Below are positions 2,763 through 51,424 of a stretch of DNA of 64,000 nt, in pieces. The stretch is taken from assembly GCA_963718615.1 (NCBI GenBank), contig OY970368.1, positions 256,001 through 320,000 on the forward strand. Reading direction: 5' to 3'. The notes under the pieces are model-generated. The model did not search any database. It saw nothing but the letters and a program-made list of their open reading frames with translations, and was not told the origin of the DNA. The stretch is from an uncultured cyanobacterium (GTDB lineage: Bacteria > Cyanobacteriota > Cyanobacteriia > PCC-9006 > JAAUQQ01). Each line of letters begins with the position of its first letter. Positions within the stretch are counted from its first letter, which is position 1. A program made the position numbers and the translations under genes.

Positions 2763-3152
2763 ATGGCTGAGCGACCTATTAAACGATCTGAACGCGCTGA
2801 GCGTGGTGAGGGAGAGGAGCGCAAGGAGGAGCGGCGCGAGGAGCGTCGGGATAGCGGCGGCAAGAGCGGCGGCAAGGGCCGTGGCAAGGGCGGACGGGGG
2901 AGAGGTGAGGGCGATCGCGAAGAGCAAAAGCAGCCTGTGAATCCGGCGCTAGTACGGGGTCCCAAGCCTGGTTCGAAGAAAAAGGAAGCGCCTAAGCCAG
3001 AAGTGGCGGAAGCGGTGAGCGACGCAACCGCTGAGACAACGGAGGTTCCTACCGAAGAAACTTCCACCGAAGCAACTTCCACCGAAGCAACTCCCGCAGA
3101 AGAAACTTCCACTGATGAAACTCCCGCAGAGGAAACTCCGGCTGACGCCTAG
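2763..3152 (+). CDS. Cyanobacterial-type hypothetical low-complexity protein
   Basis: MAERPIKRSER start, VNPALVRGPKP motif, acidic E/T/A tail with 15-bp repeats. Confidence 0.7.
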   Translation: MAERPIKRSERAERGEGEERKEERREERRDSGGKSGGKGRGKGGRGRGEGDREEQKQPVNPALVRGPKPGSKKKEAPKPEVAEAVSDATAETTEVPTEETSTEATSTEATPAEETSTDETPAEETPADA

Positions 3153-3336
3153 GGGAGCGGTGCGTTGAGCATGGTGAGTGGATTATATTGATGATTTGGG
3201 GCGATCGCTAACGGTTTGGCGATCGCCCTAATTTGATTGCAGTACCCAAAATACCCAGAGAATTTTGGCAAAATGGACGGATGGGTTCCGTGATTCTCGG
3301 GATCTAGGAATAGTTTCCCGTTCTGGATTGACGCCC

Positions 3337-6300
3337 ATGGCCCGCAAAAGCCTCCAGGATCTGATTCGTCAACGGCAGCGATCGACCTTTGTGGGTCGGG
3401 AGGCGCAGCTTGAGTTGTTTCGAGAAACGGTGCGCAATCCACGGGTTGAGCTGGATGGGACGCGCTATTTTGACCACCTGATTTTTAATATTTGGGGTCA
3501 GGGCGGTGTGGGTAAATCGACGCTGATGGGGCAGTTTCAGCAGATTGCCCAGGGTTCTGGGTTGGGGGGCGCTGATTTTGTCAGGGTGTCGATGGATGAG
3601 GGGATTAAGGCGCTGCCGGAGATGCTGGGGCGGTTTGCGGATCAGCTCGCGCAGCAGGGGCTGCCGCTGCCCAAGTTTGCGGAGCGGTACAAAACCTATC
3701 GGGAAAAGCGGGAGGAAGTGGAAACGGATCCGGAGGCTCCCCAGGGGTTTGCGGCGTTTTTGGGTCGGACGGTGACGCGGACGGGGTTGCGATTGGCGAA
3801 GCAGGTGCCGTTGGGCGGGGATGCGTTGGCGGAGCTGGTGGACGATAAGGCGTTGGTGGACCAGGGGGGCGAGTGGGCAACCTATCTGTCGCGCAAGCTG
3901 AAGAATAAGGACGAGGTGATTCTGCTGCGGGAGTCGGAGCGGGTGTTGACGCAACTGTTTCTAAAGGACTTGGAGGCGGTGGCGGCGAAGCGGGATATTT
4001 TGTTCTGTTTGGATACCTATGAGGAGACGGGTGAGTTTTTGGATAGCTGGCTGCGGGCGCTGCTGACGGAGGAGCAGTATGGGGCGGTGCCAACTAATGT
4101 GGTGATGGTGATTGCGGGGCGGGCGGAGCTGGACCGAAACCATTGGGCGGAGTTGGGCGATTTGATTGTGCGGTTGCCGCTGGAGCCGTTTACGGAGGAG
4201 GAAGCTCAGGGCTTTTTGGCGCGGAAGGGGATTGTCGATGAGCGGGTGGTTGAGGTGATTCTGGAGATTTCGGGGCGGTTGCCGTTGTTGATGGCGACGT
4301 TGGCGGAGGAGTCGCCGGAGGATGCAGGGTCAGTGGGGGATGCGAGTGGGACGGCGGTGGAGCGGTTTCTCAAGTGGGTGGATGATCCGGTGCAGCGGCA
4401 ATTGGCGTTGGATGGGGCGTTGCCTCGGCGGCTCGATCGGGATGTGGTGGCTTGTTTAGTGGGAGAAGATCGGGCGGAGGAGCTGTTTGCTTGGTTGAAG
4501 GGGCGGGCGTTTGTGCAGGAGAAGTCCGATGGTTGGCGGTATCACGAGGTGGTGCGCAGCCAGATGTTGCGGTATGTGCGCAAGCAGTCGGAGCGGGATT
4601 GGAAGGCGCGGCAGGGGAAGTTGGCGGCGTATTTTGGGGAGTTGCGGCGGGGTTGGAGCTTTCTGAGGATGAGGCTTGGAAGGATGAGCAGTGGCAGGGG
4701 TTGCGGCTGGAAGAGTTGTATCACCAGCTTTGTTCCGTGGGGAATTTGGGGTTGAGTGAGGCGATTAATGGCTTTTTGCGGGCGCTGAAGGCGAAGCGGG
4801 GATTTGCGGAGCGGTGGGCGGGGGTGATGGGGGAGGTGGGGAAATGTTGTGAGGCGGGGCGGGTTTTGGAGTGGGGGGAGCGGTTGCGGCGGGATGGGTT
4901 AACGGCTTATGAGGAAGATCGGTATAGGGAAGCGATCGCGATGTTTTCTGCGGTTTTGGGGCGGCAGGAATTGCAGGAGGGGATGCGGGCGGTTGCTTTG
5001 GCTTGGCGGGGGGAAAGTTATCGTTTGGATTCGCAGTATGAGGCTGCGCTGAAGGATTTGAATCGTGCGATTGAGCTGGATTCGGAATATAAATGGGCGA
5101 TCGCCTCACGAGGCTTCACTTACCGATTGATGGAACGCTGCGAAGAAGCCATCACTGACTTTAGCCGTGCGATTGAACTGGATTCGGAATATAAATGGGC
5201 GATATTCCAACGCGGCTACACTTACCAATTGATGGAACGCTACGAAGAGGCCATCACTGACTGCAGCCGTGCGATTGAGCTGGATTCGGAATATAAAAGG
5301 GCGATCTTCCTACGCGGCTATACTTACCAATTGATGGAATGCTACGAAGAGGCTATCACTGACTACAGCCGTGCGATTGAGTTGGATTCGGAAGATCAAC
5401 TTACAATTGCTTTTCGTGGCGGAACTTACCGATTGATGGAACGCTACGAAGAGGCCATTGCTGACTTCAACCGTGCTATTGAGCTGGATTTGGAAGATGA
5501 CTGGGCGATCGCCCAACGCGGCGAAGCTTACCGATTAATGGAGCGCTACGAAGATGCTATTTCTGATTTTGATTTTGTACTAAAAATTGATCCTCAAAAT
5601 ACCGACTGCCTGAATGAAAGAGGTTTAGCTCATCAAGCAATTAAAAATTATGAAAGGGCTGTAGAAAACTTCAACCTTTGCATAGGCATTGATTCAAACT
5701 ATAAATGGGCTTTCAGAAATCGCGGATACACTTACCGATTAATAGAGCGCTATGAAGAGGCCATAACTGACTTTAGCCGTGCCATTGAGCTGGATTCGGA
5801 ATATCAAGAGGCGATCGCCCAACGCGGCGAGACTTACCGATTGATGAAGTGCTACGAAGATGCTATTTCTGATTTTGATTTTGTACTAAAAATTGATCCT
5901 CAAAACACCGACTGCCTGAATAAAAGAGGTTTAGCTCATCAAGCAATTAAAAATTATGAAAGGGCTGTAGAAAACTTCGACCTTTGCATAGGCATCGATT
6001 CAAAATATAAATGGGCTTTCAGAAATCGTGGCGACACTTACCAATTGATGAAACGCTACGAAGAAGCCATCACTGACTACAGCCGTGCCATTGAGTTGGA
6101 TTTGGAATATCAATGGGCGATCGCCTCTCGCGGCAAAACTTACCAATTGATGGAACGCTATGAAGATGCCCTTACCGACTTTAGCCGTGCCATTAAGCTG
6201 AATTCGGAAGATAAAGGGGTGATCTTCCAACGTGGCCTCACTTACCAATTAATGGAACGCTACGGAGATGCAATCTCTGACTTCAGCCGTGCCATTAAAC

Positions 6301-7181
6301 TGGATTCAGAATATGAGTGGGCAATCTTTCTACGCGGCCAAACTTACCAATCAGTGGAACGCTACGAAGATGCCATTACTGACTTCAGTCGTGCTATTAA
6401 ACTGAATTCGGAATATAAAGGGGCGATCGCCCAACGCGGCAAAACTTACCAATTGATGGAACGTTACGAAGAAGCCATCACTGACTTTAGCCGTGCGATT
6501 GAGCTGGATTCGGGATATAAATGGGCGATCGCCCAACGCGGCAAAACTTACCAATTGATGGAACGTTACGAAGAAGCCATCACTGACTTCAACCGTGCGA
6601 TTGAGCTGGATTCGGAATATAAATGGGCGATCGCCCTACGCGGCGAAACTTGCCGATTGATGAAACGCTATCCAGAAGCCCTAACCGACTTCACCCGCGC
6701 CACTGAAATCGACCCCGAATACCGCTGGGCCATCCAACACCAAGCCGAACTCCACCTCCTCACCCACCACCCCCAAACCGCCCTCCCCAGCATCAACCGC
6801 GCCCTCGAACTCGACCCCGAATCCGACTGGTTCCACTACATCCGCGCCCTCACCCACCTCACTCTCAAAAACCCCACCGCCGCCCAAACCGACCTCACCC
6901 AAGCCATCCACCTCTGCCAACAAGAATTCAACCAAAACAAAGCCGACTGGCACGACAAATTCAACCTCCCCCTCTATCACCTCGTCGCCCAAAACCCCCA
7001 ACAAGCCAAAACCCTCTACCAAACCGCCCTCAACCAAAACCCACCCCTCGAAAAAATCAAAGAAGCCATCCGCGACCTCCAAGACCTCCTCACCATCCGA
7101 CCCAACACCCCTCACGCCCCAGCCTTCCTCAACGCCCTGGAAAAAGAGTTGCAAAAGAGACAACAGCCTAACCCCTATTGA
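3337..7181 (+). CDS. STAND/AAA_16-like ATPase fused to a long TPR array (one frameshift near 4645)
   Basis: FVGRE motif, Walker A GQGGVGKS, Walker B FCLDTYE, GRLPLL; the frame switches near 4640-4652 (adding one G restores ELRAGLELSEDEAWK) into the TPR ORF 4452..7181. Confidence 0.8.
5010..6740 (+). repeat. 102-bp TPR-coding tandem repeat array, including a near-identical 306-bp three-unit duplication
   Basis: Units RGxTYxLMERYEEAITDFSRAIELDSEYKWAIA; HIP1 sites at 5097, 5505, 5811, 6117, 6423, 6525 and 6627 are spaced by multiples of 102. Confidence 0.9.
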
Positions 7182-7281
7182 CCCCTAAAAAATCTGGCCA
7201 GATCCACAAGCCGACCCCCCAAAGCCGCCAAAAATAGCCGGTGTCTCCCCACCTCTCGAACATCCATGATCCTTTGTAAAA

Positions 7282-7355
7282 CGGGACTGGCGCGACTCGA
7301 ACGCGCGACCTAGCGCTTAGGAGGCGCTCGCTCTATCCAGCTGAGCTACAGCCCC
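7282..7355 (-). tRNA. trnR: tRNA-Arg(CCT)
   Basis: Reverse complement GGGGCTGTAGCTCAGCTGGATAGAGCGAGCGCCTCCTAAGCGCTAGGTCGCGCGTTCGAGTCGCGCCAGTCCCG; anticodon CCT. Confidence 0.95.
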
Positions 7356-7528
7356 AAGAGATAAAAGTTGTTACCCATTATAAAAACCCGATCCAGACTT
7401 CACATCGGCCAAACCCCTGATGAATCAGATTAAGCCTTAGATCTCAACCCGCAAATCCCCCTTTTTTGTAGGTTTTTTTGTGGGCAGTTCTAGGCAAAGT
7501 CCTGGGGATCCGCATCCAACCCGCCCCG

Positions 7529-8107
7529 CTAAAATCGCGTCCTGGTGCGATCGCTCCCTTCCCACAGCGCCCCCTGAAGCTGACTCCACCGAAAATCCGC
7601 CTCTCTAAGATGGCTCTCCCGAAAATCCGCCTCCACACCATAGATCTGCGTTAAATGGGCCTCAACCAAATGCGCCCGCCTCAACTTCGCTCGATACAGC
7701 CAAGCCCCAATCAAATCCGCCTGGGTCAGCGTGGCATCCGTTAGATCCGCATCACAGAGATGGGCTTCCCGCAGATTGGCATTGCCTAGATTGGCCCGCA
7801 GGAGCTGAGCCCGGTTGAGAATTGCCCCTCGCAAATTGGCATCCCAGAGATTGGCCCCAATCAAATTGGTATCGCTCAGGTCTGCCCCTTGCAAATTGGC
7901 TTGGCGGAGATCCGCGCCGGTTAGGACGGCACCCCGCAGTTGGGCTTCCTGGAGATTGGCTCCTGCAAGATTGGTCCCCACGAGCGATCGCGCTGGATCC
8001 AACGCCAACCCCATCAACTCCGGCTGCACCAGAGGAAAATCCCGCCGCCAAGCGGTCCACTGAGCGAGCCCCTGGTTGAGTAAGGCCACATGCCGGGGAT
8101 TTGCCAT
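7529..8107 (-). CDS. Pentapeptide repeat protein
   Basis: A[N/D]L-type pentapeptide repeats after a typical N-terminus (GLAQWTAWRR). Confidence 0.9.
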   Translation of the reverse strand: MANPRHVALLNQGLAQWTAWRRDFPLVQPELMGLALDPARSLVGTNLAGANLQEAQLRGAVLTGADLRQANLQGADLSDTNLIGANLWDANLRGAILNRAQLLRANLGNANLREAHLCDADLTDATLTQADLIGAWLYRAKLRRAHLVEAHLTQIYGVEADFRESHLREADFRWSQLQGALWEGSDRTRTRF

Positions 8108-10086: not shown

Positions 10087-10719
10087 ATGCAATTTACCCT
10101 TGCACAGCAGCGTGTGGCGTTTCTCACCGCTGCCTTTTTGGGGTCTTCCCAAATCACCTCTGCCGTTGCCAATCCTGCCTTTGAACAACAGGAGGTTAAT
10201 CCAGAAAATTTTGTTCTGATGGCCACGCCTTACAACAGTGGCAGTGCCCATCAGCTGACGATCGTGGAACAGCAGCAGCCCAGTCGAGCCTGTTGGAGCG
10301 AGACCGCAGCCAACCCCCATGAGGATAACGAGACCCCTGTTATCATCAATCCGCTGCTCCTCGGCTTTAATTTCAGCGGCATCTGTGGTCGCAGTACCGA
10401 TAGCAATGGCTACTCGATTCGGGTCGGTGGCGAAGACCTGAACTGGCGCTACACCGTGAAGGTCCTGGAATATAACGGTGAACTGATGCTGGTCGGTGTC
10501 CCTACGGATAATCCGGCTGAGGCCAAACTCTTGATTGCCCGTAGTCAGGGTTCTGCCCAAGACTTTTCTAAGCTTGTTTTGGAACCGGGGTGGCGGTTGA
10601 CCAAGCGGGTGTATAACGGCAAAACCCTCGGGCATCTGTATTTAACCCACGATAGTTCCCTTGCGGGTCTGGCAGCACAGGAGGTTCTGGCAGAGCGCCA
10701 ACCCGTTACGGTTCCATAA
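10087..10719 (+). CDS. DUF3747 family secreted protein
   Basis: Signal peptide; FEQQEV, CWSE, PLLLGFNFSGICGRSTDSNGYSIR, WRLTKRVYNGKTLGHLYL. Confidence 0.8.
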   Translation: MQFTLAQQRVAFLTAAFLGSSQITSAVANPAFEQQEVNPENFVLMATPYNSGSAHQLTIVEQQQPSRACWSETAANPHEDNETPVIINPLLLGFNFSGICGRSTDSNGYSIRVGGEDLNWRYTVKVLEYNGELMLVGVPTDNPAEAKLLIARSQGSAQDFSKLVLEPGWRLTKRVYNGKTLGHLYLTHDSSLAGLAAQEVLAERQPVTVP

Positions 10720-11605
10720 AGTCGGTGGGGTCAAGGCCCTGTTGTTGCAATTGGGCGAGAAGTCGAGCCAAGCGTTCCTCGGCGGCATCCGCTCGCTGGG
10801 CTTCACTGTTGGCGCGCTGGGCTTCTAGATTGGCGCGCTGGGCCTGGGCTTCGGCTTCGGTCGGAATCCAATCGCCTTGGGCATTTTGCCAACGCAGCCA
10901 GGGCCGCGTGACGCCCTTGTATTCTCCTTCCCAGAGGCCAAGACCAATCTCAAGATCGGCCAGCCAAATGCGAGGGTTCTCCTCTGCTAGCGGCTGTTCG
11001 CGATACTGGCCTGCCTGCAACTGAAAGAAGTGCAACTGATTGGTATAGCGGCTGTAGACAATGTAGTAGGGAACTTGAAGAATGTCTTCGTAGACTTTCC
11101 ATTTGGCAGGAGGACGGCGACGGGGTTGGGCTAAAAAGTCATCAATCTCAGCGGTCTCAGCGGCTGCCGGATCGATGTCGTCCGTGGTGCGGTAATAGGG
11201 GCCGAGATCTTGCTTTTCTGTCCCCGGCGAGAGTAATTCAACAATAATGCTGGGGGCAACGCCTTCGTCCCAAACCACATAGCTGAGGCGCATATCTATC
11301 CCGCTGTAGAGATAGGGCGTACCCAAGGCCACAAACCAGTCTGGGCGTTTGTGCCAGAGGGGATGGTCAGGGTCGTAGTAAAGATTAATGTCCGTGCCAG
11401 GAAAACGCTCTTGAAAGCCGTATTGCGTCAGTTGAAGCGTGGCACTGAGCAATTCGGGTTGAAGATCATGGTAAACGTCGGGCAAGCCAGGCTCCTGAGG
11501 AAATTCGCTGGGCAAATCATACATCGTCAGGTGTTGGCCCGCAGCCTGAGAAGAGGAGACTTGGGCCTCAGGCTGCTTACTAGATGCAGACAGACGAGAT
11601 TGCAT
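10706..11605 (-). CDS. Uma2 family (DUF820) PD-(D/E)XK endonuclease-like protein
   Basis: MYDLPSE..EPGLPD, RPDWF, SYVVWDEG, VELLSPGT, C-terminal AQRA coiled coil. Confidence 0.88.
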   Translation of the reverse strand: MQSRLSASSKQPEAQVSSSQAAGQHLTMYDLPSEFPQEPGLPDVYHDLQPELLSATLQLTQYGFQERFPGTDINLYYDPDHPLWHKRPDWFVALGTPYLYSGIDMRLSYVVWDEGVAPSIIVELLSPGTEKQDLGPYYRTTDDIDPAAAETAEIDDFLAQPRRRPPAKWKVYEDILQVPYYIVYSRYTNQLHFFQLQAGQYREQPLAEENPRIWLADLEIGLGLWEGEYKGVTRPWLRWQNAQGDWIPTEAEAQAQRANLEAQRANSEAQRADAAEERLARLLAQLQQQGLDPTDFMEP

Positions 11606-30853: not shown

Positions 30854-31285
30854 TCAAGACTTCAGTAAGGCAAGGCTGGCTGCAACCTCTTTCGCTTTCT
30901 CTTCAATCACGGCGATCAGCTCTTCTGGAGTACGGGTGTCTTCCTCGACTTTTTTGTTGGGGTTGACAGCTTTGAGATCGTAGTTTTTGGCTTCGATTGC
31001 GTCGCGGGTGACGGTCCAGGCGCGATCGCTATCAGCGCGGGTGGGCAGGAGTTTGAAGAAGTCGGCGAAATGGTCGAGGGTGAGGGGACTTTTTTTGGCG
31101 ACTTTGAGATCGGAGAGGTCGTAATACCAAATGCGCTCGGTGGATTTGCCTTTGGTGAAGAAAACGAGGTTAGTTTTTACGCCAGCACCGGCGCTGGTGA
31201 AGACGCCACCGGGGAGGCTGACGATGCACCACACATCGGCTTCGTCGAGGAGCTTGCGTTTGGTTTGGACAAAGGCTTTTTCATT
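30854..31285 (-). pseudogene. hsdM: Type I R-M methyltransferase HsdM, C-terminal remnant
   Basis: EKAFVQTKRKLLDE..VWCIVSLPGGVF..AGAGVKTNLVFF, IWYYDL, YDLKAVNP; N-terminal part absent. Confidence 0.8.
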
Positions 31286-31607
31286 GGGTGGCGTTGGGGG
31301 TGGCTCTCCAAATGACTTTGACTTTGCGGACGATGCCCCATTCTCCTTCGTCTTTGCGTTCTGCTTCGGCGCTGGTTACTTGGACGAGGTGGGTGACGAG
31401 GGTGTGTTCGCTAGCGGGAGGGTTTTGGACGAGGAGAATTAGGTCGCCTTGGTTTGCTTTGGCTGCATTGGTTTCGCTGCCTTTTGTATTTGACCAGTTG
31501 AGTTCGACTTCTTTGCCGGTTTGCCAGGTGTCTTGTTCGTAGGCCCAGCAATTAGGGTCGTCAATATTTTTGATGAATTTGAGTTTGTTGAGTGTCAGGA
31601 GGGGCAT
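31281..31607 (-). CDS. Hypothetical protein in the R-M locus, probably 3'-truncated by a deletion into hsdM
   Basis: ATG start; GDLILLVQ...VTHLV motif; its stop is supplied by the hsdM fragment junction. Confidence 0.55.
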   Translation of the reverse strand: MPLLTLNKLKFIKNIDDPNCWAYEQDTWQTGKEVELNWSNTKGSETNAAKANQGDLILLVQNPPASEHTLVTHLVQVTSAEAERKDEGEWGIVRKVKVIWRATPNATQ

Positions 31608-31636
31608 GGTTTTTATTGTTGTATTTGGATACTAGA

Positions 31637-31970
31637 TCAAAGTTCGCCGTTGAAGGCTTGCCGGAGCAGGGCGGCGGGGAGTTGGTTGATGGTGTCGAGT
31701 TGGGATTGGAGGAATTGTTGCAAGCCTTGTAGAAATTTCATTTTACTTCCCAATAATTCAACTATTTCTCTCTGCCTGCTTACAGGCGGAAGCAACACCA
31801 TAATTGATGATAAATTGGCTTGATTGATCTTGTATATCCCAGCGGCAGTTCTTGACTTAGATTCGATATCACAACGAATTAGTGGTGAATCCCATATACA
31901 CTGCAAGTAACTCGGTATTATTATTTCTGGGTTAACCACAACCTCAATCAGAAGATCAGGATATAAGATC
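31637..31970 (-). pseudogene. hsdS: Type I R-M specificity subunit HsdS, C-terminal remnant
   Basis: YPDLLI, AGIYKINQ..L....LLPPVSRQREIV...QLPAALLRQAFNGEL; the TRD part is AT-rich. Confidence 0.8.
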
Positions 31971-32002
31971 GCCCCAAGCCAACGGCTCATTCTACGCCAT
32001 CC

Positions 32003-32385
32003 CTAAGCCGCAAACTGACCCACCTCCATCTCGCCTGCATCCGCCAGCCGCTTCACCAAGTTGACCGCAATGAAGGTTTTCCCCGCCCCCGTCGCCAGCG
32101 TCAGCAAAACCCGCGCCGCTTCGCCTTGGGTGTGGCACCGACCAATTTTCTCAAACGCCGCTCGAATCGCCGCATCTTGGTAATAGCGCCGCTGAGATTC
32201 TCCCCCGGCATAGGGCGTTAGCAGCGGCTTTGCTGCATCGGACTCCAGGCTAAAGCCGATGTGAGCTTCGTAGCGCGATCGCAGCTCTGCTGGCGATGGA
32301 AAATCAGTTAGAGACTTGGCTGGGCTCGTCAGCCCCGTGGTGCGGTCAAACGCCACAAACAAATGACCGTTGGTGCTGAAAATAC
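32003..32385 (-). pseudogene. hsdR: Type I R-M restriction subunit HsdR, internal N-proximal remnant
   Basis: STNGHLFVAFDR, RYYQDAAIRA, Walker A LATGAGKT; truncated at both ends. Confidence 0.8.
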
Positions 32386-32602
32386 AGTCTTTCCCTGACT
32401 TCTTTGAATGGGGGCTTGAACAATCCTCTGAGCTTCCACTCCCTCGACAGTCTCATAAATCACAACAGGCTGAGCCTAAGCTGCTCCTCGTTTTCCCGGC
32501 TTAAGTTACTACCCAAATTATTTTCAGAATCAATTACCCGAAATTCAGGCTCCTGCGACACAGCAAGGGTTGTCAATCGAGAAGTCATTCAGCACCAATT
32601 AA

Positions 32603-35995: not shown

Positions 35996-36018
35996 TGAGA
36001 TCGCTAACAACATTTGAC

Positions 36019-36522
36019 TCAAGACCTCAACTTATCTGTGTTGTCAAAACATTGAACCGTGCCTGTCCAATCTTTGTCCTCTATCACGGTCTCAGTATAG
36101 TTTTTCCCTGTGTAAGCTGCGATAACACTTCGCCAGAACTGTTGCGCAACAGGATTGGTATGAATTTGATGGATCTCCCAACGACCATGAAATAAGTCAA
36201 AAATGTGAAAAGCAACTTGGCGACCGATCCCCTGTTTACGGTACTTCCGTAATATAAAAAACTCTGCTACTGAGTATTGGCTATCTGGAAGATACGTGTA
36301 TTGATTCACCAACACAAAACCAGCGAGCTTACTATTCGCTCTTACCAGAAACGGATAGCGATCGGCTTCAACCCAGTAGTAATCCAGATACAGATAGCCA
36401 AAGTAGCCATGCTCGTTGAGATCGGTGTTCTCAAACTCTGAGAAGTCATACTGATAAAGCTCCATCATTTGCTGAATGGTTGACTTGTCTGTGATTAGAG
36501 CGGGTAAGACTTCAACATCCAT
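36019..36522 (-). CDS. GNAT family N-acetyltransferase
   Basis: ELYQYDFSEF, AEFFILRKYRKQGIG, N..AQQFW. Confidence 0.88.
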   Translation of the reverse strand: MDVEVLPALITDKSTIQQMMELYQYDFSEFENTDLNEHGYFGYLYLDYYWVEADRYPFLVRANSKLAGFVLVNQYTYLPDSQYSVAEFFILRKYRKQGIGRQVAFHIFDLFHGRWEIHQIHTNPVAQQFWRSVIAAYTGKNYTETVIEDKDWTGTVQCFDNTDKLRS

Positions 36523-36630
36523 GATGAACAATCAATTGACACTTTTGGATTCACCGACATCTTCACAGTTACTCGATTTTAGCTGCCAACAATGCACTGC
36601 TATCTATCGCCACCAACTGCCAACAATGCA

Positions 36631-36764
36631 GCCCAATAATTGCTTTTTTACGCACGATGCCTAATAACTCCCTCCTCCCGGTATTATCAAGCGCCAACAT
36701 CATATAATCCCCAGTCACAGCCAGTTATCCAGACAGTCATACTGGATAACACGCCCGGTTGGGT
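36631..36764 (-). repeat. attC-like element (134 bp), homologous to 39334-39420
   Basis: Bounded by ACCCAAC...ATTGGGC on the minus strand; internal hairpin gttatccag...ctggataac; about 80 bp align by eye with 39331-39420. Confidence 0.55.
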
Positions 36765-36799
36765 ATTAAGTAGATAGACACAATCAAATTTGAGAGTAT

Positions 36800-36828
36800 G
36801 TAGGTTGCGGTTAGGAACGAAACCCAAC
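36800..36828 (+). repeat. GTAG-type REP-like palindrome
   Basis: GTAGGTTGCGGTTAGGAACGAAACCCAAC: GTAG tetramer followed by an imperfect palindrome. Confidence 0.5.
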
Positions 36829-36950
36829 GCTCGTCAAGGCTGAGTGGCTTTTGTTGTATGGGTTGGTCGATGGCAAGGGTCATAGGGCAAATTAGCCCAA
36901 TCAATGCCTTCAGTTTACCAGCTCGAATATGTGACGTCTGAAGCCTTTTG

Positions 36951-37200
36951 TTATGCATTATTGCTTTCAGATTTTTCGCTGAAGTCCCAGAATGGTCTGA
37001 TCTCAATACCCCCTTTAGCTCTAGCACAGGAGGTATTGGTGACAAGTTGAACTACCTGAGCAATATCGTTTGCTTCGATGATTGAAAAACCAGCGAGAGG
37101 CAATTTGGGCTTAGTAAATAACTCGTTCTCAGGAGTCAGATTGCCGTTCCAATTCGTAAATGTTACCCTCCTAGCTTCGACCCCCCAAATTTCGAGTCGG
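36951..37200 (-). pseudogene. YciI/DGPF-like protein, 5'-truncated
   Basis: NWNG...LPLAGFSIIEA...CARAKGGIEIRP; the stop TAA lies within GCATAAC. Confidence 0.6.
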
Positions 37201-37437
37201 GTCATTGTGGTCAGGTCAGAAGTCACATCTGCGTTTGAGGGGAGGGACTTTCACCCTGATCAAGAGGGCAATTCAGCTTTTTAGAGGGCTTTATGTTTAG
37301 AAACCAAGCTGGCAGAGTTATTTACGGGCTCTCACCGTTATTTGTCTGCAACAAATTGCACTCCCTATACCAATTGGACTCCTATCAATTATTTATAGAC
37401 TAAATACACCAACAAGCTCTATCCTTGATTCTTAGAT

Positions 37438-38043
37438 TTACCAAGTAGGTTCGAAATTAACTATTGCATTTACCGCCCTATTCAAACTTCGAGAGTGAGT
37501 TTTTGCAATTTCAGCATTCCAGCTTTGGTTGACAAATTGAATAAGTTGACCATTGTAGTCTTTCCCTATTTTTGCAGTACTATTTTTAGTGGGCACAATT
37601 GCATCACGCAAATAACGTTTTCTTGACTTTTTAGTTAAATCAAGCAGCAGTTGCTTGGGATCAGGCACTGAATCTACATCATCAGGGATCAAGCCTACTG
37701 AAATTCCAAGGAACTCTGCAAATGCTTCACGATGTGCCAAGAGCCAAGCCTCTACTTCTACCACTGCTACTCTAAAAATCAAATTGGGGTGTTTTGGAGA
37801 AGATAACCATTCTCCAAGTAAAGCTAGTGGACATTCATTCTTATCTAAATCTGTTAGAACTAAATAGGGGGAACCTTTTGCAGCATGATTTATTCCGGGA
37901 AGAATTTTCTTGAGATAACCATAACCTCGGCGCTTTAAGCAAGTTCCAATAGAGAATGGACGCTGAGACTGCTTGAGTATTTCCCTCAAGACTGCCTCGC
38001 TTAAATCATCCTCAACTGCTAGGTTAATTGGAATATCTGTCAT
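37438..38043 (-). CDS. Toprim-like DUF4276-type protein
   Basis: AVEDDLSE, VLTDLD, EVEAWLLA, DPK, SRSL motifs; ATGA overlap with the upstream ATPase. Confidence 0.75.
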   Translation of the reverse strand: MTDIPINLAVEDDLSEAVLREILKQSQRPFSIGTCLKRRGYGYLKKILPGINHAAKGSPYLVLTDLDKNECPLALLGEWLSSPKHPNLIFRVAVVEVEAWLLAHREAFAEFLGISVGLIPDDVDSVPDPKQLLLDLTKKSRKRYLRDAIVPTKNSTAKIGKDYNGQLIQFVNQSWNAEIAKTHSRSLNRAVNAIVNFEPTW

Positions 38044-39188
38044 CTGAGTAAGCTCAGTTGGTCAACCTGTGCAGGTGTTGCACAAGGTAAAGCTGCGTCA
38101 GCAACAGTAAGTCCTCCATCAAGAAGGCTGCTAATCTCTTGAATTGAAGAAGCTAATTCAACTTTCGTACCTTCAGCAGTCGGTGTCATCAGTAAAACTT
38201 CCTCACCTCCAATACCTGCATCAGATAGCAGGTCAGCGCTATGGGTACTTAGCATAACTTGTCGTTTTTTTGCCTTCTGTAAACGATAAATTAGAGAAGG
38301 TAGTTTAGCAGTAATTCCAGCATTTAAAGATAATTCAGGTTCTTCAAGAAGCAGTAAAGAATCACTTTCAAGAAGTGACCATAATAAACCAATTAAACGT
38401 AATGTCCCATCTGAAAACTGATCTTCTCGCTGTTTACCGGCTCCAGGTCGCCAATGCTCATAGACTGCTTCTAAATGAGGAATTCCCATTTCATCTTTAA
38501 TATCAGTCAATTGTTTTAATTGAGGAACTGCGATTCTTAAGGCATTTTCAATCTTTTTTAGACGAGAGCGGCGAGTTTTTTCTGGAGTCTTAACAACGCG
38601 CTCCAAAAAGTTCCTACCAAAGGGGTCTTCTTGAAGTCCTGGTCCACTGAAGGCTTCAGGATACCGTAATAGTTGAGGTACTAAATGGAGATACAGGATG
38701 GATTCAAGAAATTTTGGAATTTCTCTAAATTCTGCATTGGCATTAATTTGTTCCAAGTATGTTTGAGTTAAACGTAGGCTGTCTTGTTCATCTTCAGGGT
38801 CTGGACGGTTTATTAACTGTTCGCCATTTTTCCAAACTCTTTCATAAGAGAGAACGGGTTCATTTTGCCCCCCTTTTCTTTGCTTAATTCCAATACTATA
38901 TCTCCAGGTAGGTTCTACTAATTCATTTTCTGATAGATGCACTTCTATTTCAACGTCAGGATATCGTCTTGCATACAGACACCTGATTTTGGATAACCCA
39001 CCTCGGTCTCTTACAGCCTTCTGTAATCCACCTCCATCCTTGGCCAGATCTCGCAAGAATCTTAGAGTATCAAGAAAATTTGACTTGCCAGAGGCATTGG
39101 GGCCAACGAGAAAAACACGATCTCTCAAATGGACATCCACTGACCGAAAGTTTCTCCAGTTCTTCAAGCCTATGTGAGAAATAATCAT
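38040..39188 (-). CDS. AAA_21/ABC-type ATPase (OLD/PARIS-like)
   Basis: LKNWRNF, Walker A GPNASGKS, signature FSDGTLR, Walker B LLLLEEPE, H-loop STHS; low GC. Confidence 0.88.
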   Translation of the reverse strand: MIISHIGLKNWRNFRSVDVHLRDRVFLVGPNASGKSNFLDTLRFLRDLAKDGGGLQKAVRDRGGLSKIRCLYARRYPDVEIEVHLSENELVEPTWRYSIGIKQRKGGQNEPVLSYERVWKNGEQLINRPDPEDEQDSLRLTQTYLEQINANAEFREIPKFLESILYLHLVPQLLRYPEAFSGPGLQEDPFGRNFLERVVKTPEKTRRSRLKKIENALRIAVPQLKQLTDIKDEMGIPHLEAVYEHWRPGAGKQREDQFSDGTLRLIGLLWSLLESDSLLLLEEPELSLNAGITAKLPSLIYRLQKAKKRQVMLSTHSADLLSDAGIGGEEVLLMTPTAEGTKVELASSIQEISSLLDGGLTVADAALPCATPAQVDQLSLLR

Positions 39189-39333
39189 CACTTAACAACA
39201 AACGCCTATTGAACTTTTTGATATTTTAATGATATCTTTTCTAGCCCTGTCTTAGCATTGAAAAACGTCAACCAATTTATCTGGCTGAACAAGAGGTTGA
39301 TGATAAATGCCTTAACCGGGAACTAAAAAAGCA

Positions 39334-39420
39334 GCGCAACAATTATTATTTTTTACGAACGACGCCTGATACTCCCCTTCTCCAGGTATCCTCAAGCTCC
39401 AATGCCCAATGCCCTATAAT
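39334..39420 (-). repeat. Partial attC-like element, homologue of 36631-36764
   Basis: GTTGCGC core-like motif on the minus strand; shared ttttttacg.acga.gcct.ata.ctcc...ggtat..tcaagc.ccaa block. Confidence 0.5.
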
Positions 39421-39583
39421 CTTATTATCTTCGCATGGCTTCCGGGTAACATCCTTGTGGCAGATATTACTAGATATGTCTCAGTGTAATCACTCCTTTT
39501 GAGCCAGTGTATAAAATTACAAAATCTTCACTACTAAGTTAAGAAAACTAGATATTTTATTCTCTGCTCCCATACAACCCCAC

Positions 39584-39653
39584 CCACCCAATCTTCTCCA
39601 CCGAAACAGCTATGCCATCCGCACGGTCCAAGGGCACTATCCAAGAGCTGCTC
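39584..39653 (+). pseudogene. Tiny relic of a tyrosine recombinase box II, integron-integrase-like
   Basis: ccacccaatcttctccaccgaaacagctatgccatccgcacggtccaag...ccaagagctgctc resembles ATHLLxNGYDIRTVQELL; reads NSYAIRTVQ and TIQELL in adjacent frames. Confidence 0.45.
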
Positions 39654-39821: not shown

Positions 39822-41383
39822 CTAGAGCGAATCAACCGAAGAGAGAGGAGAAGTTGCAACTTTGGCCAATCCAGCCTCAGTAATACTCGCGCTTAGGATC
39901 GGGGTTTTTTGGACGGATTCGGTGGCGATCGCAAACAGCGGATTCGACAAAACCCCAGCCAACGTCGTCGCAATTACCGTGAGCACCAAACCCACCTGCA
40001 ACGGACGCAATCCCGGTAAATCCCAAGAAATTCTAGGATAGTTTTTCACCGCATCAGACATCTCGTGGGGCTCTTTCACCACCATCATCTTCACCACACG
40101 AATGTAGTAGTAAATGGAGATCACACTCGTGAGCAACCCAATCAGCACCAACGTGTAAAGACCCGCTTGCCAGCCCGCCCAGAAGAGATAGAGCTTTCCA
40201 AAGAACCCCGCTAGCGGCGGAATGCCACCCAGGGAAAGTAGGCAAAGACTCAGGCCCAGCGTAATCAGCGGATCCTTCTGGTAAAGCCCTGCATACTCGC
40301 TAATTTGGTCCGTGCCAGTGCGCAAGGAAAATAGAATGATGCAGGCAAACCCGCCCAGGTTCATAAACAGGTAAATGAACAGATAGAAGAGCATACTGGC
40401 GTAGCCCGTCTCAGTTCCGGCGATTAAGCCAATCATGACAAACCCGGCTTGGCCAATCGACGAATAGGCCAGGAGGCGCTTCATACTGGTTTGAGCCAGG
40501 GCGACGATATTGCCCAGGATCATGCTGAGAATCGCCAGTGCCGTAAAGACAAAATGCCATTCTTCGCTCAGCAGCGGAAAAACCGTGACCAACAACCGAG
40601 TCGCCAGGGCAAACCCTGCGGCTTTCGATCCCACAGACAAAAACGCGACTACCGGCGTCGGAGAACCTTCATAGACATCCGGCGTCCACTGGTGGAAGGG
40701 AACCGCCGAAATCTTGAACGCGACCCCCGCGACCACAAAGACCAGGGCAATGACCAAACCGAGGGACTGATTGCTCATCGCCAAATGTTCGGCGATCGCC
40801 CCCAGTTGAGTCTCCCCCCCGACAACCCGTATAGCAACGAAACGCCATACAAAAACAGCGCCGAACTGGATGCCCCAATCAACAAATACTTAAGCGCGGC
40901 CTCGTTGGAGCGGGAGTCCCGCTTCATATAGCCCGTCAACAGGTACGACGAAATACTCAACGTTTCCAGGGAAACAAAAATCATCACCAGCTCATTCGCC
41001 CCGGAGAGGAACATGCCCCCCACGGTTGCCGTGAGCAGGATCGTGATAAATTCCCCTAGCGATGTTCCCGCCTGCTCCACATAGCGGACCGAGATCAGGA
41101 TCGTGATCATCGCCGAGAGCACCACGATCGCCCGGAAAATTAAACTCAAGGCATCGCTGCTAAAGCTGCCGAGGAAGGCGATCGCCTCCGTACTCTCCCA
41201 CTGAGTCGCCAAGGCCACCAAGGCCCCCGACAACCCAACAATACTGAGGGCCGGTGTGACACGGTTAGACCTGCGGCCCTGGATGAGATCCACCACCAAC
41301 ACCATCAGCAGGGTGATGATGACAATGCCCTCGGGCAGGATCACCCCAGCATTGAGCTGGGAGGCAAGATTGGCTACGTCCAT
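39822..41383 (-). CDS. ndhB: NAD(P)H-quinone oxidoreductase subunit 2 (NdhB); apparent 1-nt frameshift at 40814-40820
   Basis: [53 protein letters not shown]; G7 to G8 restores LYGLSGGETQL. Confidence 0.93.
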
Positions 41384-41821
41384 AAAATTCTTTGAGAACA
41401 GTCCCCTTTGGTAACCCAGAGTGAATTCTAACCTTTCATCCCTGCATCCCTCAAAGTCTTCCGGGGGATTAAAATTCCGAAATATAGACTCCCTGTAAGG
41501 CTCAACCTCAAAAAAACTTCCGCATTTTCTCGGGGGGAAGTCTTCCGCTTTCCTGTCTACTTTGGGAAATACTTGTGGGCTGCTCTTCCCCAAGGCCCGG
41601 AACGATTGGCTATAAGAGAGAAGAGGGGCATCTCCCGATTGTGCTTTAGCCTAGAGAAAGTCGGCTGCCGTTCTGGCGACTTCGTTAAGTTTTCCCGCTC
41701 CAAGAATCGCCTTAAGGGAAAACTTGGCTTAAGGTGCAATAAAGACTCTTACAGTTTGAGCCCTCCTCGGAAGGCCAAAACTGTTCCCCTAACCGTTACT
41801 CGATCGCCTTCAAAGACATTC

Positions 41822-46117: not shown

Positions 46118-47131
46118 ATGGCTATTCATTGGCTGCAAGCGCTAGAAGTGGGCAAGTACCTGGTCACCCAGCGGCTCAAGGGCAACAAGCAGTTTCCCCT
46201 TGTCCTGATGTTGGAGCCCTTGTTTCGCTGCAACTTGGCTTGTACGGGCTGCGGTAAGATCCAGCACCCCACGGAAATTCTCAAACAGAATCTGAGCCCG
46301 GAAGATTGCTTCCGGGCAGTGGAAGAATGCGGTGCCCCTGTGGTCTCGATTCCAGGCGGTGAGCCGCTGCTCCATCCCCAGATCCAGGAAATTGTTGAGG
46401 GCTTGGTGGCTCGCAAAAAGTTTGTCTATCTCTGCACAAATGGCCTTTTGCTAGAGAAAAGCCTCGACAAGTTTAAGCCTTCGCCCTATTTTTCCTTCAG
46501 TGTCCATTTGGATGGCCTGCGGGAGCACCACGATAAATGCGTGGATCGGGATGGCGTGTTTGATAAAGCCGTCGCTGCGATTAAAGCGGCCAAGGCGCGA
46601 GGCTTCCGGGTCACCACGAACACAACGGTTTTTGAAGGAACGGATCCGCAGGAGATTCAAGCGTTCTTTGATTTTCTGGCGACGTTGGGCGTAGACGGCA
46701 TGATGATCTCACCGGGCTATGGCTACGAATGGGCTCCGGATCAAGACAGCTTTTTGCAAAAGGAAAAAACCAAGGCGCTCTTTCGGGAAATCCTCGCGCC
46801 CTACAAGGCCGGTCAGAAAAAGTGGGTGTTTAACCACAGTCCTCTTTTTCTCGACTTTCTCATGGGTGAAAAGGATTACGAATGCACGCCCTGGGGCAGT
46901 CCAAGCTACAGCGTTTTAGGCTGGCAAAAACCCTGTTATTTACTCAATGAAGGCCATTACAAAACCTTCCAGGAGTTGCTTGATCATACGGACTGGAGTC
47001 AGTATGGCCAAAAGAGCGGCAATCCGAAATGTGCGGACTGTATGGTCCATTGTGGCTATGAGCCGACTGCGGCGTTGGATTCGATGGAACCGAGTAATGT
47101 GGGGCGATCGCTCGCTTCTCTGTTTGGCTAG
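46118..47131 (+). CDS. hpnH: Adenosyl-hopene transferase HpnH (radical SAM)
   Basis: [51 protein letters not shown]. Confidence 0.95.
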
Positions 47132-47156
47132 GTTGACAACCGTTTCAGAATTCATG

Positions 47157-47190
47157 AAGCCGGAACGGAGCAATCGTTCCGGCTTTTCTC
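47157..47190 (+). terminator. Intrinsic terminator after hpnH
   Basis: aagccggaacg...cgttccggctttt. Confidence 0.7.
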
Positions 47191-47191
47191 A

Positions 47192-47440
47192 TTAGCCGAT
47201 TTGAGTGATGTTGAGGTTGTAGCCCGTTGAACCCGTCACCAGACGGACGCGGGCAAAATAGTTGCCTGCTGCCAACTGACGAGTAAAGGTTTCCGGCAAG
47301 AGCAGCGGATTGGTGGAAGAGTAGAGCACCGTCGTGCCATCTGCCGCCAGGATATCTAGATCAGCATTACCCGTCGCCACTGACAGATTAAACAATAGGC
47401 TGGTGGTCCGGTTCAAAGTGAATTTGTAAGTTGCTGTCAA
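47192..47440 (-). pseudogene. C-terminal PPC (pre-peptidase C) domain remnant, truncated by IS982
   Basis: YKFTL...GNADLDIL...SSTN...E.F...LAAGNYFARV; abuts the IS end. Confidence 0.6.
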
Positions 47441-47444
47441 GTTA

Positions 47445-47565
47445 ACGTCAGTTCCGGTTAAGACTCGGCCGATGGAAGCGCGAAATCAAGGTTGAGAGCC
47501 GGTTGCTTGGGCTGATGGCAGTAGGCAATCAAGCCGCGTAGCAGGGTTGACCGAGAAATTGATGA
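47445..47565 (-). mobile_element. IS982-family right-end remnant
   Basis: Minus strand GLIAYCHQPKQPALNL...TAA followed by terminal CCGGAACTGACGT. Confidence 0.7.
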
Positions 47566-47721
47566 GGTGGTTTTGCCGTTTGGGGTCTGGACTGGGAAGC
47601 TGGCACATCTACAAGTCCTCTCTTGTCTCAGTATTTTCCGGTAAGCCGGAGTTTGCCTTGTAAAAAGAAAAGAGCGACTGTCGCACTTTGATTCATCTTA
47701 GCCTTGTAGTACTAATATTCT

Positions 47722-48264
47722 ATGTTTGATAACGATTTTTATGAACTCAAGAAAGCTCTAGAGTCGGTTACTCTTGAGGTGACACATCTTAAAAATGAAT
47801 TACACAAAAAAGACCTAGAGATAGAGAAGCTTAAAGAATCTGACGAGAATAAATTGCGAACAAGAGTGGGAGAGCAAGACAAAATAATTGAGGAATTGAG
47901 AGAGAATCTCAAAAAAGCTCAAGTAGGTTTATCGGGAGCAAGGGCAGATAACCAAGCTCTGCAAGATAGGATAGCTGGATTAATAAGAGGAACATCTGAC
48001 TTGGAGACACAGGTTAAATCTCTCCGAGATGCGAATGTAGAGCAAGATTTGAAAAATAGAGAGCTGCAATTAGAGCTAAAGCAATCTTTACTAAAAACAT
48101 CTCGCTCAAATGCAGATTTTCAGGATCTGCATGATCGCATAGCAGGACTGGTCAAAGAAAATACAAATCTAAAAAGGGAGGCTATTGCAAAGCAAATGGT
48201 TTCAAAAACATTTAACGGTGTTAAGGGATTGGTTGATCAACTAAAGCCAAAAGTAGAAGACTAG
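47722..48264 (+). CDS. Coiled-coil hypothetical protein
   Basis: 180-aa low-GC ORF with heptad pattern; internal repeat LQDRIAGLI/LHDRIAGLV. Confidence 0.7.
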   Translation: MFDNDFYELKKALESVTLEVTHLKNELHKKDLEIEKLKESDENKLRTRVGEQDKIIEELRENLKKAQVGLSGARADNQALQDRIAGLIRGTSDLETQVKSLRDANVEQDLKNRELQLELKQSLLKTSRSNADFQDLHDRIAGLVKENTNLKREAIAKQMVSKTFNGVKGLVDQLKPKVED

Positions 48265-48381
48265 CGTATCTGATTTAGGTCAGATCAAATCTCAAGGTTC
48301 AGTCGCTTTTAGCCTTCTGACACATCCTTCTAATATAGGGGCAATCAGCATAGAAGCTTCTTAAGTTAGTTTCAGTTCAAG

Positions 48382-48768
48382 ATGCATATGTTTAATCTTT
48401 ATAGCGAGGCTGTTCAGCTAGAACGCTCAATTAGAGAGATAAAGTCATCTCAAAATTCTTTGAATTGGCAGTATGAGCAAGCCAAGAAAGAGAAGAAAAA
48501 GTGGGAAAATCGGGTTGAATTAGCTGAGCAGCATTTAAAGCTTGACCTGGCTGATGCAGCTCTTTCTGAGTGCAAAAAAAGAGCAAGTTTGATTGAATTA
48601 CTTGAGCTGCGTATGAAAAGTAGAGAGAAAGCCATGGATACTGCTATGCAACGTCTAGAGTCAGTAGAGCTAAAAATTTATGAGGGTTTGTCTAGAAGAT
48701 TTGCTCATAAAATTTTTGCTGTTGACGAAGAGTTAGCTCTTTTGAAGAAACAAATTGATAATCTCTAG
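48382..48768 (+). CDS. Short PspA/IM30-like coiled-coil protein
   Basis: KWENRVELA....KLDLADAAL and terminal VDEELALLKKQIDNL resemble PspA/Vipp1 motifs. Confidence 0.6.
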   Translation: MHMFNLYSEAVQLERSIREIKSSQNSLNWQYEQAKKEKKKWENRVELAEQHLKLDLADAALSECKKRASLIELLELRMKSREKAMDTAMQRLESVELKIYEGLSRRFAHKIFAVDEELALLKKQIDNL

Positions 48769-48921
48769 GGGGAGAGTCATGCCGAGATATATGTAAAAAG
48801 TTCAAGTAGATTCCAGGATGTCTACTAGGGGTATGGCAACGACCCTTACGAAGAGAAGAAGGCTCTAAAAGTTATTTTGTGGTTGTTTCAGAGGCCAGGA
48901 AGGCCTATAGGAGTTACGTAA

Positions 48922-49326: not shown

Positions 49327-49619
49327 ACGTATTCCTGTGGCTGACTTCAAATCTAAGTGCGCCCTCCCTATTCTGTAACCCTTTTTGGGATCCCCTACTT
49401 GGCTGGGGTCTTTTGTTGCTCAAAATTCAATCCCATCAAAGCTTTTAGGCTTAGCGACAAAAACATAGGCTGACAACCGTTAGCTCAGCTTCAACGTCTC
49501 GGGTAGCACACGCATTGACCTGTCCATTCGCCAAAATCACGGGTTTCATGAACCGAATACCAAGCCCCCGAATCCCTCGAACCCCAACAAACCACCCTCA
49601 CAAGCATCCCCGAAGCCGC

Positions 49620-51418: not shown

Positions 51419-51424
51419 GTAGGT

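Follow-up and report, generated by a model that had tools for sequence, protein, structure and literature searches.

Base composition of the gene at 3337-7181

We analysed a 64,000-nucleotide (nt) stretch of the genome of an uncultured cyanobacterium (the window; G000:C1:256001-320000), and in it a plus-strand gene for a probable P-loop ATPase with an array of TPR units, located at 3337-7181. The source genome (G000) is a single contig of 6.10 Mb with a GC content of 52%, in which HIP1 sites (GCGATCGC) are frequent. The plus strand of this gene is rich in G and T on the left of the array and rich in C and A on its right. A region of which the plus strand is saturated with G/T is called a K arm or K block here, and one saturated with C/A is called an M arm or M block.

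The N-terminal, STAND-like ATPase part occupies 3337-4648 on the plus strand. It begins with the ATG at 3337, in a frame that is open from the TTG at 3265, and its translation contains the Walker A stretch GQGGVGKST. Its match to Pfam AAA_16 (E=2e-4, 22.4 bits) stayed under the cut-off of 32.6, and NCBIfam and PADLOC gave no match for this part. Its relatives share 55% (G015), 54% (G021) and 89% (G003) of the amino acids; G003 is a genome from a different genus of the same family as G000. The K arm extends over 3400-5050. The homogenised TPR array then follows at 5051-6679 on the plus strand, with a period of 102 nt by TRF, a GC content of 0.41-0.47, self-matches of 78-87%, a Pfam TPR_1 match of E=4e-131 and no skew. 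The M arm (6680-7181, plus strand) is the 3' end of the gene and consists of diverged TPR-like helices up to the stop codon. Behind it, the C/A bias is retained in a non-coding tail at 7182-7280 (C 0.384, A 0.303, G 0.141, T 0.172). A tRNA-Arg(CCT) gene at 7281-7356 on the minus strand, found by ARAGORN and 88-95% conserved in six relatives, lies within the tail of the M domain, and a convergent pentapeptide-repeat gene (7529-8107, minus strand; Pfam Pentapeptide E=2.6e-55) comes next.

The GC skew, computed in 300-nt windows, was +0.33 at 3350-3649 and climbed to +0.59 at 4700-4999. It was about 0 over 5150-6650, and then it was -0.55 to -0.64 at 6650-7250. Such values are rare in the genome: among 40,637 windows of this size, 13 exceeded +0.6 and 10 fell below -0.6. 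The K arm as a whole contains G 0.441, T 0.231, C 0.161 and A 0.167, and its skew grows toward the array and stops abruptly there; the M arm contains C 0.463, A 0.299, G 0.116 and T 0.122.

The original prediction had described the synonymous positions of the ATPase part as saturated with G/T, and the 3' end of the gene as saturated with C/A and poor in G. Both descriptions were correct. The third codon positions were G 0.66, T 0.20, C 0.087 and A 0.051 at 3400-4645, and G 0.65 and T 0.26 at 4662-5050, and the share of G/T across 3400-5050 was 86-91%. They were close to even in the array (5051-6679), and at 6680-7178 they were C 0.695, A 0.22, G 0.048 and T 0.036, that is, about 92% C/A. As a control for amino-acid composition we used 4-fold degenerate sites. 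In the left arm, the share of G at these sites was 0.756 and 0.737; in the right arm, that of C was 0.882. Amino-acid composition therefore cannot explain the flip; the skew persisted under this control and was strongest at the 4-fold sites. Seven HIP1 sites were counted in the array (5051-6680), as had been stated, because the codons of the TPR unit repeat. One more site lies at 4932, and there is none in 6680-7260.

The claim that the flip occurs within one gene needs a correction. The flip is present, but the gene is not one intact open reading frame (ORF): two overlapping frames, 3265-4755 and 4452-7181, cover it, and a 1-bp deletion of an A at 4648-4649 (plus strand) shifts the frame. By alignment, this A is present in G003, and it is also present in one contig each of X1 and X2, so that G000 alone is affected; X1, X2 and X3 are sequencing runs, and contigs from three further samples carry the gene at 92-95% identity. 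The copy in G000 would thus be either a pseudogene, namely a frameshifted P-loop ATPase-TPR copy, or an assembly error. An NDH-1 subunit 2-like gene at 39822-41593 (minus strand) is also split into two overlapping ORFs, one holding Ndh2_N and positions 1-61 of Proton_antipo_M and the other holding positions 76-294 of the latter. This second split gene is either a true frameshift or a sign of indel errors in the assembly, and the frameshift at 4648 may thus be such an error as well.

Distribution and shape of the flips in the genome

In the whole genome, 65 regions had a GC skew above +0.4 and 71 regions had one below -0.4 in 500-nt windows. Where such extreme regions (|GC skew| > 0.4) were neighbours at a distance of at most 3 kb, a positive region was followed by a negative one in 22 pairs, and the reverse order occurred in 3; the reverse cases that we inspected were junctions between two adjacent units. 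The same order was seen within long genes. In 1,534 genes of at least 400 codons, called as longest ORFs, we compared the third-position keto (G+T) skew of the first and the last 150 codons: in 11 genes the first value was the higher one by more than 1.0, and no gene showed the reverse. The G/T segment came first in all 10 genes holding both kinds of segment. The flip pattern is its own reverse complement. Therefore, the strand of the gene is irrelevant, and a like polarity at a locus on the opposite strand is automatic.

We counted 27 '+ then -' pairs and 27 flip centres in G000, and 25 of these centres are tandem arrays and/or low in GC. Long-period tandem repeats were present in 14 of the 27 centres, compared to 1.8% of random segments, and a GC content below 0.48 was found in 16 of the 27, compared to 16% of random segments. 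We also picked loci without using the skew. In 29 tandem arrays of at least 300 nt, the skew was +0.25 in the left flank and -0.20 in the right flank, and the left value was larger in 27 (p=7e-8). In 103 low-GC islands of at least 1 kb, the values were +0.068 and -0.061, and the left was larger in 71 (versus 32; p=1.7e-7). In 1000 random segments, both flanks were about 0 and the left was larger in 493 (p=0.38). The expectation that the switch points co-locate with variable loci was thus borne out. Moreover, the length of the array correlated positively with the flank skew (Spearman 0.38, p=0.04).

The arms are 0.6-2.7 kb long. With all edges defined alike, the skew just beyond the inner edges was -0.006 and +0.018, and just beyond the outer edges it was +0.124 (p=0.0015) and +0.083 (p=0.10). 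The mean profile fell to 0 by about 2-2.5 kb outward. That is, the inner edge of an arm is abrupt and the outer side has a tail.

At the 4-fold sites of the G/T blocks, G was 0.72, T 0.13, C 0.085 and A 0.065, and the C/A blocks were the mirror image, with C at 0.79. The first and second codon positions shifted along with the third in both types of block. Amino acids followed the bias: G, V, R and E were raised in the G/T blocks, and T, P, N, H and I in the C/A blocks. The GC content at third positions (GC3) was 0.69 in K blocks and 0.74 in M blocks against 0.57 in the genome, and the GC content of the arms was 0.566 and 0.554 against 0.523.

A switch at a replication origin or terminus was ruled out as the source of the pattern. 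The arms measure only 0.6-2.7 kb, there are 27 pairs of them, and replicon-scale skew was not found in G000, where 100-kb windows did not exceed 0.054 in magnitude and gave no two-domain shape.

Relation of the bias to coding and transcription

The 3' end of the pentapeptide-repeat gene is G/T-rich in its own sense, with a third-position keto skew of +0.7 and +0.6 in its last two 40-codon bins. Thus, the plus-strand C/A bias of the M arm runs on into this gene; the plus-strand GC skew is -0.30 and -0.24 at 7400-7850, inside its region. Further convergent neighbours of arms that were validated by Pfam (YhcG, S26 peptidase/SodN and PDDEXK_2) are also G/T-rich in their own sense, and the divergent neighbours Uma2 and CIA30 lean to C/A in theirs. 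At adjacent gene ends, the plus-strand third-position skew was correlated with r = 0.19-0.21 in all four orientation classes. At the islands, the positional effect was about +0.05 and -0.05 in either direction of the flank gene. The persistence of the bias in non-coding DNA, its presence in opposite-strand neighbours and its independence of orientation reject codon selection. The original prediction had held codon usage and transcription to be poor explanations of the flip, and on this point we agree with it.

A translational explanation would be that the 5' parts use wobble-read NNG/NNT codons and the 3' parts use NNC/NNA codons read by Watson-Crick pairing, and that this arrangement tunes the translation speed or the expression of costly defence proteins. 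NNC and NNA are the directly read codons, and the codon switch is in fact near-complete for every amino acid (for example, GAG 0.87 versus GAA 0.87, and GAT 0.87 versus GAC 0.79). However, non-coding DNA carries the bias too, the codon sense is inverted in opposite-strand neighbours, the first and second codon positions and the amino-acid composition are shifted as well, and the frameshifted copy retains the bias. We consider this explanation barely credible.

Another explanation is convergent transcription. According to it, the non-template strand exposed in bubbles or R-loops would turn G/T-rich, the 5' arm would result from sense transcription and the 3' arm from antisense transcription coming from downstream, and G-rich non-template DNA would stabilise R-loops and so reinforce itself. 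The sign of the island flank skew, however, is constant for flank genes pointing in or out, and such orientation-independent results speak against a cause anchored in transcription. Transcription enriches the coding strand in G/T, and the genes of G000 are indeed slightly G/T-rich in sense (sense third-position keto skew +0.09; sense GC skew +0.022). Several C/A arms also adjoin convergent genes that are G/T-rich in their own sense, as this explanation would have it. But in the flips the G/T excess does not follow the sense strand, because the 3' arms are C/A-rich in sense and the opposite-strand neighbours keep the plus-strand bias. To account for the C-rich right flank of 27 of the 29 intragenic arrays, almost every array would have to be followed by an antisense promoter. 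In several cases the C/A domains run on through downstream genes on the same strand (XisI, PIN, PemK). The skew grows toward the array, and its tail lies on the side of the promoter; a promoter-anchored signal would show the opposite. A promoter and terminator scan of 2900-7700 gave one promoter-like site, fewer than in shuffles, and the promoter scan showed no antisense candidate near the 3' end, a weak point in the same direction. We therefore think that convergent transcription is quite unlikely to be the cause.

Gene classes at the flip loci

By their Pfam and PADLOC matches, the flip loci include TPR-CHAT, CHAT-NACHT-TPR, caspase-NB-ARC, nSTAND1-WD40, EAD10-NACHT, NB-ARC-TPR and TPR-trypsin genes. 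Others hold PglX with PglZ (BREX), DrmMI with DrmA (DISARM), PrrC, Cas1, Cmr4/Cmr6, AbiEii and Uma2. In the type I restriction-modification (RM) operons among them, hsdM is G/T-rich and hsdR is C/A-rich. TPS and FG-GAP/Hint proteins also occur, together with a few housekeeping genes adjoining such loci. By these family matches, the arms lie mostly in defence or conflict genes (STAND, CHAT, BREX, DISARM, type I RM, CRISPR). A PADLOC match at E<=1e-10 was obtained for 30 of 54 extreme-skew proteins (7 of the 30 being generic TPR matches) and for 11 of 51 ORFs of the window, a control that is itself defence-rich and owes 3 of its 11 matches to the RM remnant described below. The sign of the bias in a CHAT domain depends on its position: N-terminal domains are G/T-rich (L005, L048) and C-terminal ones are C/A-rich (L003, L004, L007, L008, L011, L062).

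An insertion sequence of the IS1 type or toxin-antitoxin cargo is present in several flip centres. An IS1 splits a TPR-CHAT gene at L074 (G000:C1:1979451-1996000), an IS1 lies between hsdS and hsdR at L083 (G000:C1:652000-664000), and a DDE transposase splits a DUF4915 gene at L142 (G000:C1:2043000-2051000). The DISARM-like locus L084 (G000:C1:3576000-3594000) has two genes for DrmMI (MmeI-like) methylases, followed by DrmA. A DUF433-PIN toxin-antitoxin pair splits each DrmMI between its methylase and target-recognition parts, and the skew switches exactly there. At L144 (G000:C1:4086000-4097000), a low-GC block holds an FtsK-PD-(D/E)XK protein and HigB. A housekeeping gene of the aconitase family (LeuC-like) lies at the right edge of this block, and the 5' end of the gene is strongly C/A-rich.

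Other loci of the window

The same polarity had been predicted around an hsdS gene of the window. The plus-strand polarity was found there as in the gene at 3337-7181, but the flip is weaker, and the locus is not an intact hsdS but a decayed type I RM remnant (30854-32452, minus strand) with a centre of GC 0.43-0.48. Its GC skew is +0.22 to +0.34 at 30900-31800 and -0.23 to -0.25 at 31800-32250. The remnant is spread over four short ORFs, with a REase_I fragment at 32003-32359 (model positions 126-216 of 807), a Specificity_I fragment at 31637-31987 (344-453 of 571) and an MTase_I fragment at 30854-31231 (405-460 of 635), all on the minus strand; a Pfam search of it gave no Methylase_S.

A weaker polarity had also been claimed for the flanks of two islands, and 1-kb windows did show mild skew there, in line with the significant genome-wide island test. 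The low-GC island at 36000-39600 (GC 0.40-0.44) has a flank skew of +0.11 on the left and -0.19 on the right. It contains a candidate defence system at 37438-39191 (minus strand, GC 0.40), the HEC-01B/HEC-01A pair of an AAA_21 ATPase and its partner (PADLOC HEC-01A E=8e-161, HEC-01B E=6e-68). The low-GC island at 47000-52400 holds two Uma2/PDC-S03 genes, its flank skew is +0.18 to +0.20 and -0.21, and the plus-strand skew goes from positive to negative within it.

Uma2-family genes (PF05685; PADLOC PDC-S03/PDC-S17) are very numerous in G000, and those of the window lie at 10706-11605, 49662-50273, 51772-52359 and 53583-54230. They adjoin many flip loci (L079, L080, L081, L141, L142, L145), and several are themselves G/T-rich, with a bias that grows toward their own 3' end. 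Just upstream of the gene at 3337-7181, a pair of HIP1 sites at 3196-3231 forms a hairpin with a 16-bp stem, which the terminator scan picked up. Before it, at 2763-3152 (plus strand), there is a purine-rich ORF of low complexity (EERKEERREERRDSGGKSGGKGRGKGG...) with a GC skew of +0.3 and an AT skew of +0.4; it matched no Pfam or NCBIfam family, and related DNA occurs in G001 and G003 at 73-76% identity.

History of the gene and its relatives

In G003, both arms are present at about 90% nucleotide identity, compared to 65-81% for the housekeeping genes of the window. The synonymous divergence (dS) from G003 was 0.14-0.29 in the arms and 0.9-1.9 in three housekeeping genes, and the nonsynonymous divergence (dN) was 0.056-0.10 and 0.09-0.18, respectively. 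Codon saturation inflates the identity of the arms, yet by our estimate too little to explain this gap. The gene has probably been exchanged horizontally, to judge from these identities. In X3, the homology stops at the borders of the gene, 3343 and 7163. The homology with G003 begins only at about 3951, and the gene is thus a mosaic. The array of X3 is much shorter (1021, 944 and 103 nt are skipped there), so the copy number of the array varies in relatives. The orthologs in G015 and G021, 54-55% identical, are only weakly skewed.

These data bear on the explanation that the composition was imported, that is, that the bias was acquired elsewhere, for example in replicons with extreme replication skew, and that the genes are mosaics of opposite strands that spread horizontally. 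The identity across genera, far above that of housekeeping genes, and the homology borders in X3 and G003 would agree with it. However, chance mosaics would give both orders, not 22 versus 3 and 27 of 29. Many unrelated families are affected, and the sign of one and the same domain varies with its position. The bias also reaches local housekeeping neighbours, namely S26 peptidase/SodN and the 5' end of the aconitase-family large subunit, and the arms have no paralogous DNA in G000. We regard an imported composition as very improbable.

A blastn search of both arms against the whole G000 genome gave no second match on either strand. A giant hairpin or inverted copy of the arms was ruled out by this result, as was a recent repeat family, since the arms match only themselves in G000. 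The same search ruled out a target of a diversity-generating retroelement (DGR) by the lack of a template repeat; reverse transcriptase was not searched for.

Other cyanobacteria have weaker versions of the flip. For 30 further cyanobacterial genomes, each represented by its best CHAT locus, the third-position keto skew was -0.33 or lower in 5 and between -0.20 and +0.24 in 25. Among seven CHAT loci with longer flanks, three combined a mildly G-rich 5' side with a CHAT end rich in C, and the remaining four were rich in C or close to zero over their whole length. In G059, 800 kb that had not been selected gave a trend of like sign that was not significant: 8 '+ then -' versus 3 '- then +' pairs at a threshold of 0.3, 2 of 2 arrays, and 16 versus 8 islands (p=0.053).

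Possible origin of the flips

We favour, with a probability of roughly 0.5, the explanation that the flip is a mutational footprint, left by recurrent single-strandedness of the strand running 5' to 3' toward a break- or stall-prone core, with GC-biased conversion in addition. The unstable segments would be long-period tandem arrays (TPR, WD40 and similar), AT-rich cargo and the specificity modules of defence loci, which may be prone to break or to stall forks. With each break or stall, the flanking 1-2.5 kb would become single-stranded on the strand that runs 5' to 3' toward the segment. The exposed strand would be either the 3' tail that remains after 5'-to-3' resection of an end or, where a fork has stalled at the segment, the lagging-strand template behind that fork. 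The amino bases, A and C, are the vulnerable ones when DNA is single-stranded, and the exposed strand would therefore lose A/C and gain G/T. As this would happen on each side, the plus strand would become G/T-rich in the left flank and C/A-rich in the right flank. Within the core, breaks would fall on either side of any unit, and units would be homogenised or replaced; the core would therefore have no net skew, and the inner edges would be sharp. GC-biased conversion in the recombination tracts would let G (or C) beat T (or A) and make the arms GC-rich, and the raised GC3 of the arms suggests such an addition. Fork stalling may fit as well as recombination, because the polarity of the lagging-strand template would equal that of resection.

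The original prediction of a strand-asymmetric process acting outward from recombined loci is supported in part, by the polarity, the co-location with variable loci, the spread into non-coding DNA and opposite-strand neighbours, the independence of gene orientation, the sharp inner edge and the outer tail; the direction of substitutions lent it no support. Its version based on transformation would predict no flip, because one imported strand would span both arms.

Several points weigh against the explanation that we favour. When substitutions were polarised against relatives, no directional excess was found: alleles that are 90-95% identical differ symmetrically. The differences between G000 and G003 numbered 28 versus 35 in the left arm and 15 versus 15 in the right arm. 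Among the differences listed, 29 were two-state sites with X1/X3, of which 11 pointed toward G/T, 13 toward C/A and 5 stayed within a class; all 29 set G000 alone against the others, and this branch is unrooted. The symmetry implies that the skew is old and stationary, and that the process was not seen acting. Furthermore, the skew travels with a gene that is common to other genera at about 90-95% identity, and it need not have arisen in this genome. Deamination alone (C to T and A to G) predicts T at least equal to G, but G was 0.72 and T 0.13 at the 4-fold sites of K blocks. The 4-fold purine fraction of 0.79 would need pyrimidine-to-purine changes or a fixation bias, so deamination alone is insufficient. 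To our knowledge, the amplitude of the flips far exceeds that of any break-associated footprint. In addition, the 29 arrays include cases in which one gene contributes two pieces, and the gene calls of the whole genome are crude longest-ORF calls.

The polarity can also be read as a selected feature. According to this alternative, RecA or Chi-like recognition would favour G/T-rich 3' tails, and these would be kept as recombinogenic arms that help defence genes to repair or exchange their variable cores. On both sides, the prospective 3'-tail strand is in fact the G/T-rich one, and the arm-bearing genes have cores that differ between relatives. RecA prefers TGG-repeat, Chi-like sequence (PMC3763553), and on each strand RecBCD leaves a gap between the break and the nearest Chi (PMC6393298), which would fit an unskewed core. 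However, synonymous selection per site would be minute, and a few hotspot motifs would not require about 90% of the third positions to be saturated over 1-2 kb. The bias also leaks into unrelated neighbours and non-coding DNA and fades with distance, like a by-product. We consider selected arms improbable.

A wider form of the mutational-footprint explanation is that DNA which chronically breaks or stalls forks is generally scarred by kb-scale keto/amino flips that can be read from one genome, and that in this lineage the flips became self-reinforcing: G/T-rich 3' tails would load RecA better, and the recombination arms thus built into defence genes would let strains and genera exchange sensor or specificity cores faster. 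We think that this wider form is unlikely.

Strand skew is normally used only for finding replication origins. If it also records sites of habitual breakage, stalling or recombination, fragile sites could be mapped at kb resolution from a single assembled genome. The bias described here is strong enough to alter codon use and amino-acid content. If the favoured explanation is true, the variable cores of bacterial immune genes (NLR-like STAND/CHAT, BREX, DISARM, type I RM, CRISPR) lie in mutationally abnormal surroundings. This is relevant to the evolution and decay of immune genes, to the codon-based inference of expression or foreign origin, and to gene finding, as the arms are rich in open antisense frames.

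Comparison with known systems

Our search of the literature, which did not extend to subscription journals, turned up no account of local flips at arrays or defence genes.

GC-biased gene conversion is symmetric between strands, and alone it cannot make one strand G-rich and the other C-rich. The flips resemble it in that the presumed recombination tracts have elevated GC and GC3. They differ from it in that strand symmetry fails: at the 4-fold sites of K blocks, G is 0.72 and C 0.085, and M blocks mirror these values. In transcription-associated asymmetry, including the GC skew of R-loops, the non-template strand is exposed and has an excess of G/T. The 5' arms agree with this asymmetry, whereas the 3' arms have the opposite sign and the island effect is independent of orientation.

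In replication-associated skew, of which PMC3269012 is a general account, the leading strand is G/T-rich and the terminus is a switch from positive to negative. The flips share with it the signature of G+T versus A+C, the presumed chemistry of exposing one template strand, and a 'terminus-like' polarity. In contrast to it, G000 has no replicon-scale skew, and the flips form dozens of domains of 0.6-2.7 kb, tied to arrays and islands, with a local amplitude of up to 0.6 in GC skew.

The gene classes that carry most flips are those of the STAND/CHAT/TPR/WD40 conflict systems of multicellular bacteria (PMC7159879) and of DGR-diversified sensors (PMC10907252). A search of PMC7159879 for the terms skew, codon usage, strand bias and compositional gave none. 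A DGR needs a template repeat, but no second copy of the arms exists in G000.

In polarity, the flips equal mutation clusters in yeast. There, as PMC6786661 describes, bidirectional 5'-to-3' resection of a double-strand break yields clusters with a single switch, in which the mutated bases of the top strand are C's on the left of the break and G's on its right. The likeness lies in this polarity (loss of C on the left and of G on the right), in the kb scale and in the one switch point at the break. The order that resection would give, with C on the 5' side and G on the 3' side, is the order found here in 22 versus 3 adjacent pairs and in 27 of 29 arrays. The difference is that the yeast clusters are single laboratory events produced through an added cytidine deaminase, whereas the flips are a fixed, saturated evolutionary composition in a bacterium. 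Moreover, in the flips A is affected besides C, there is a net gain of G, and a whole unstable segment takes the place of the point at which the yeast clusters switch.

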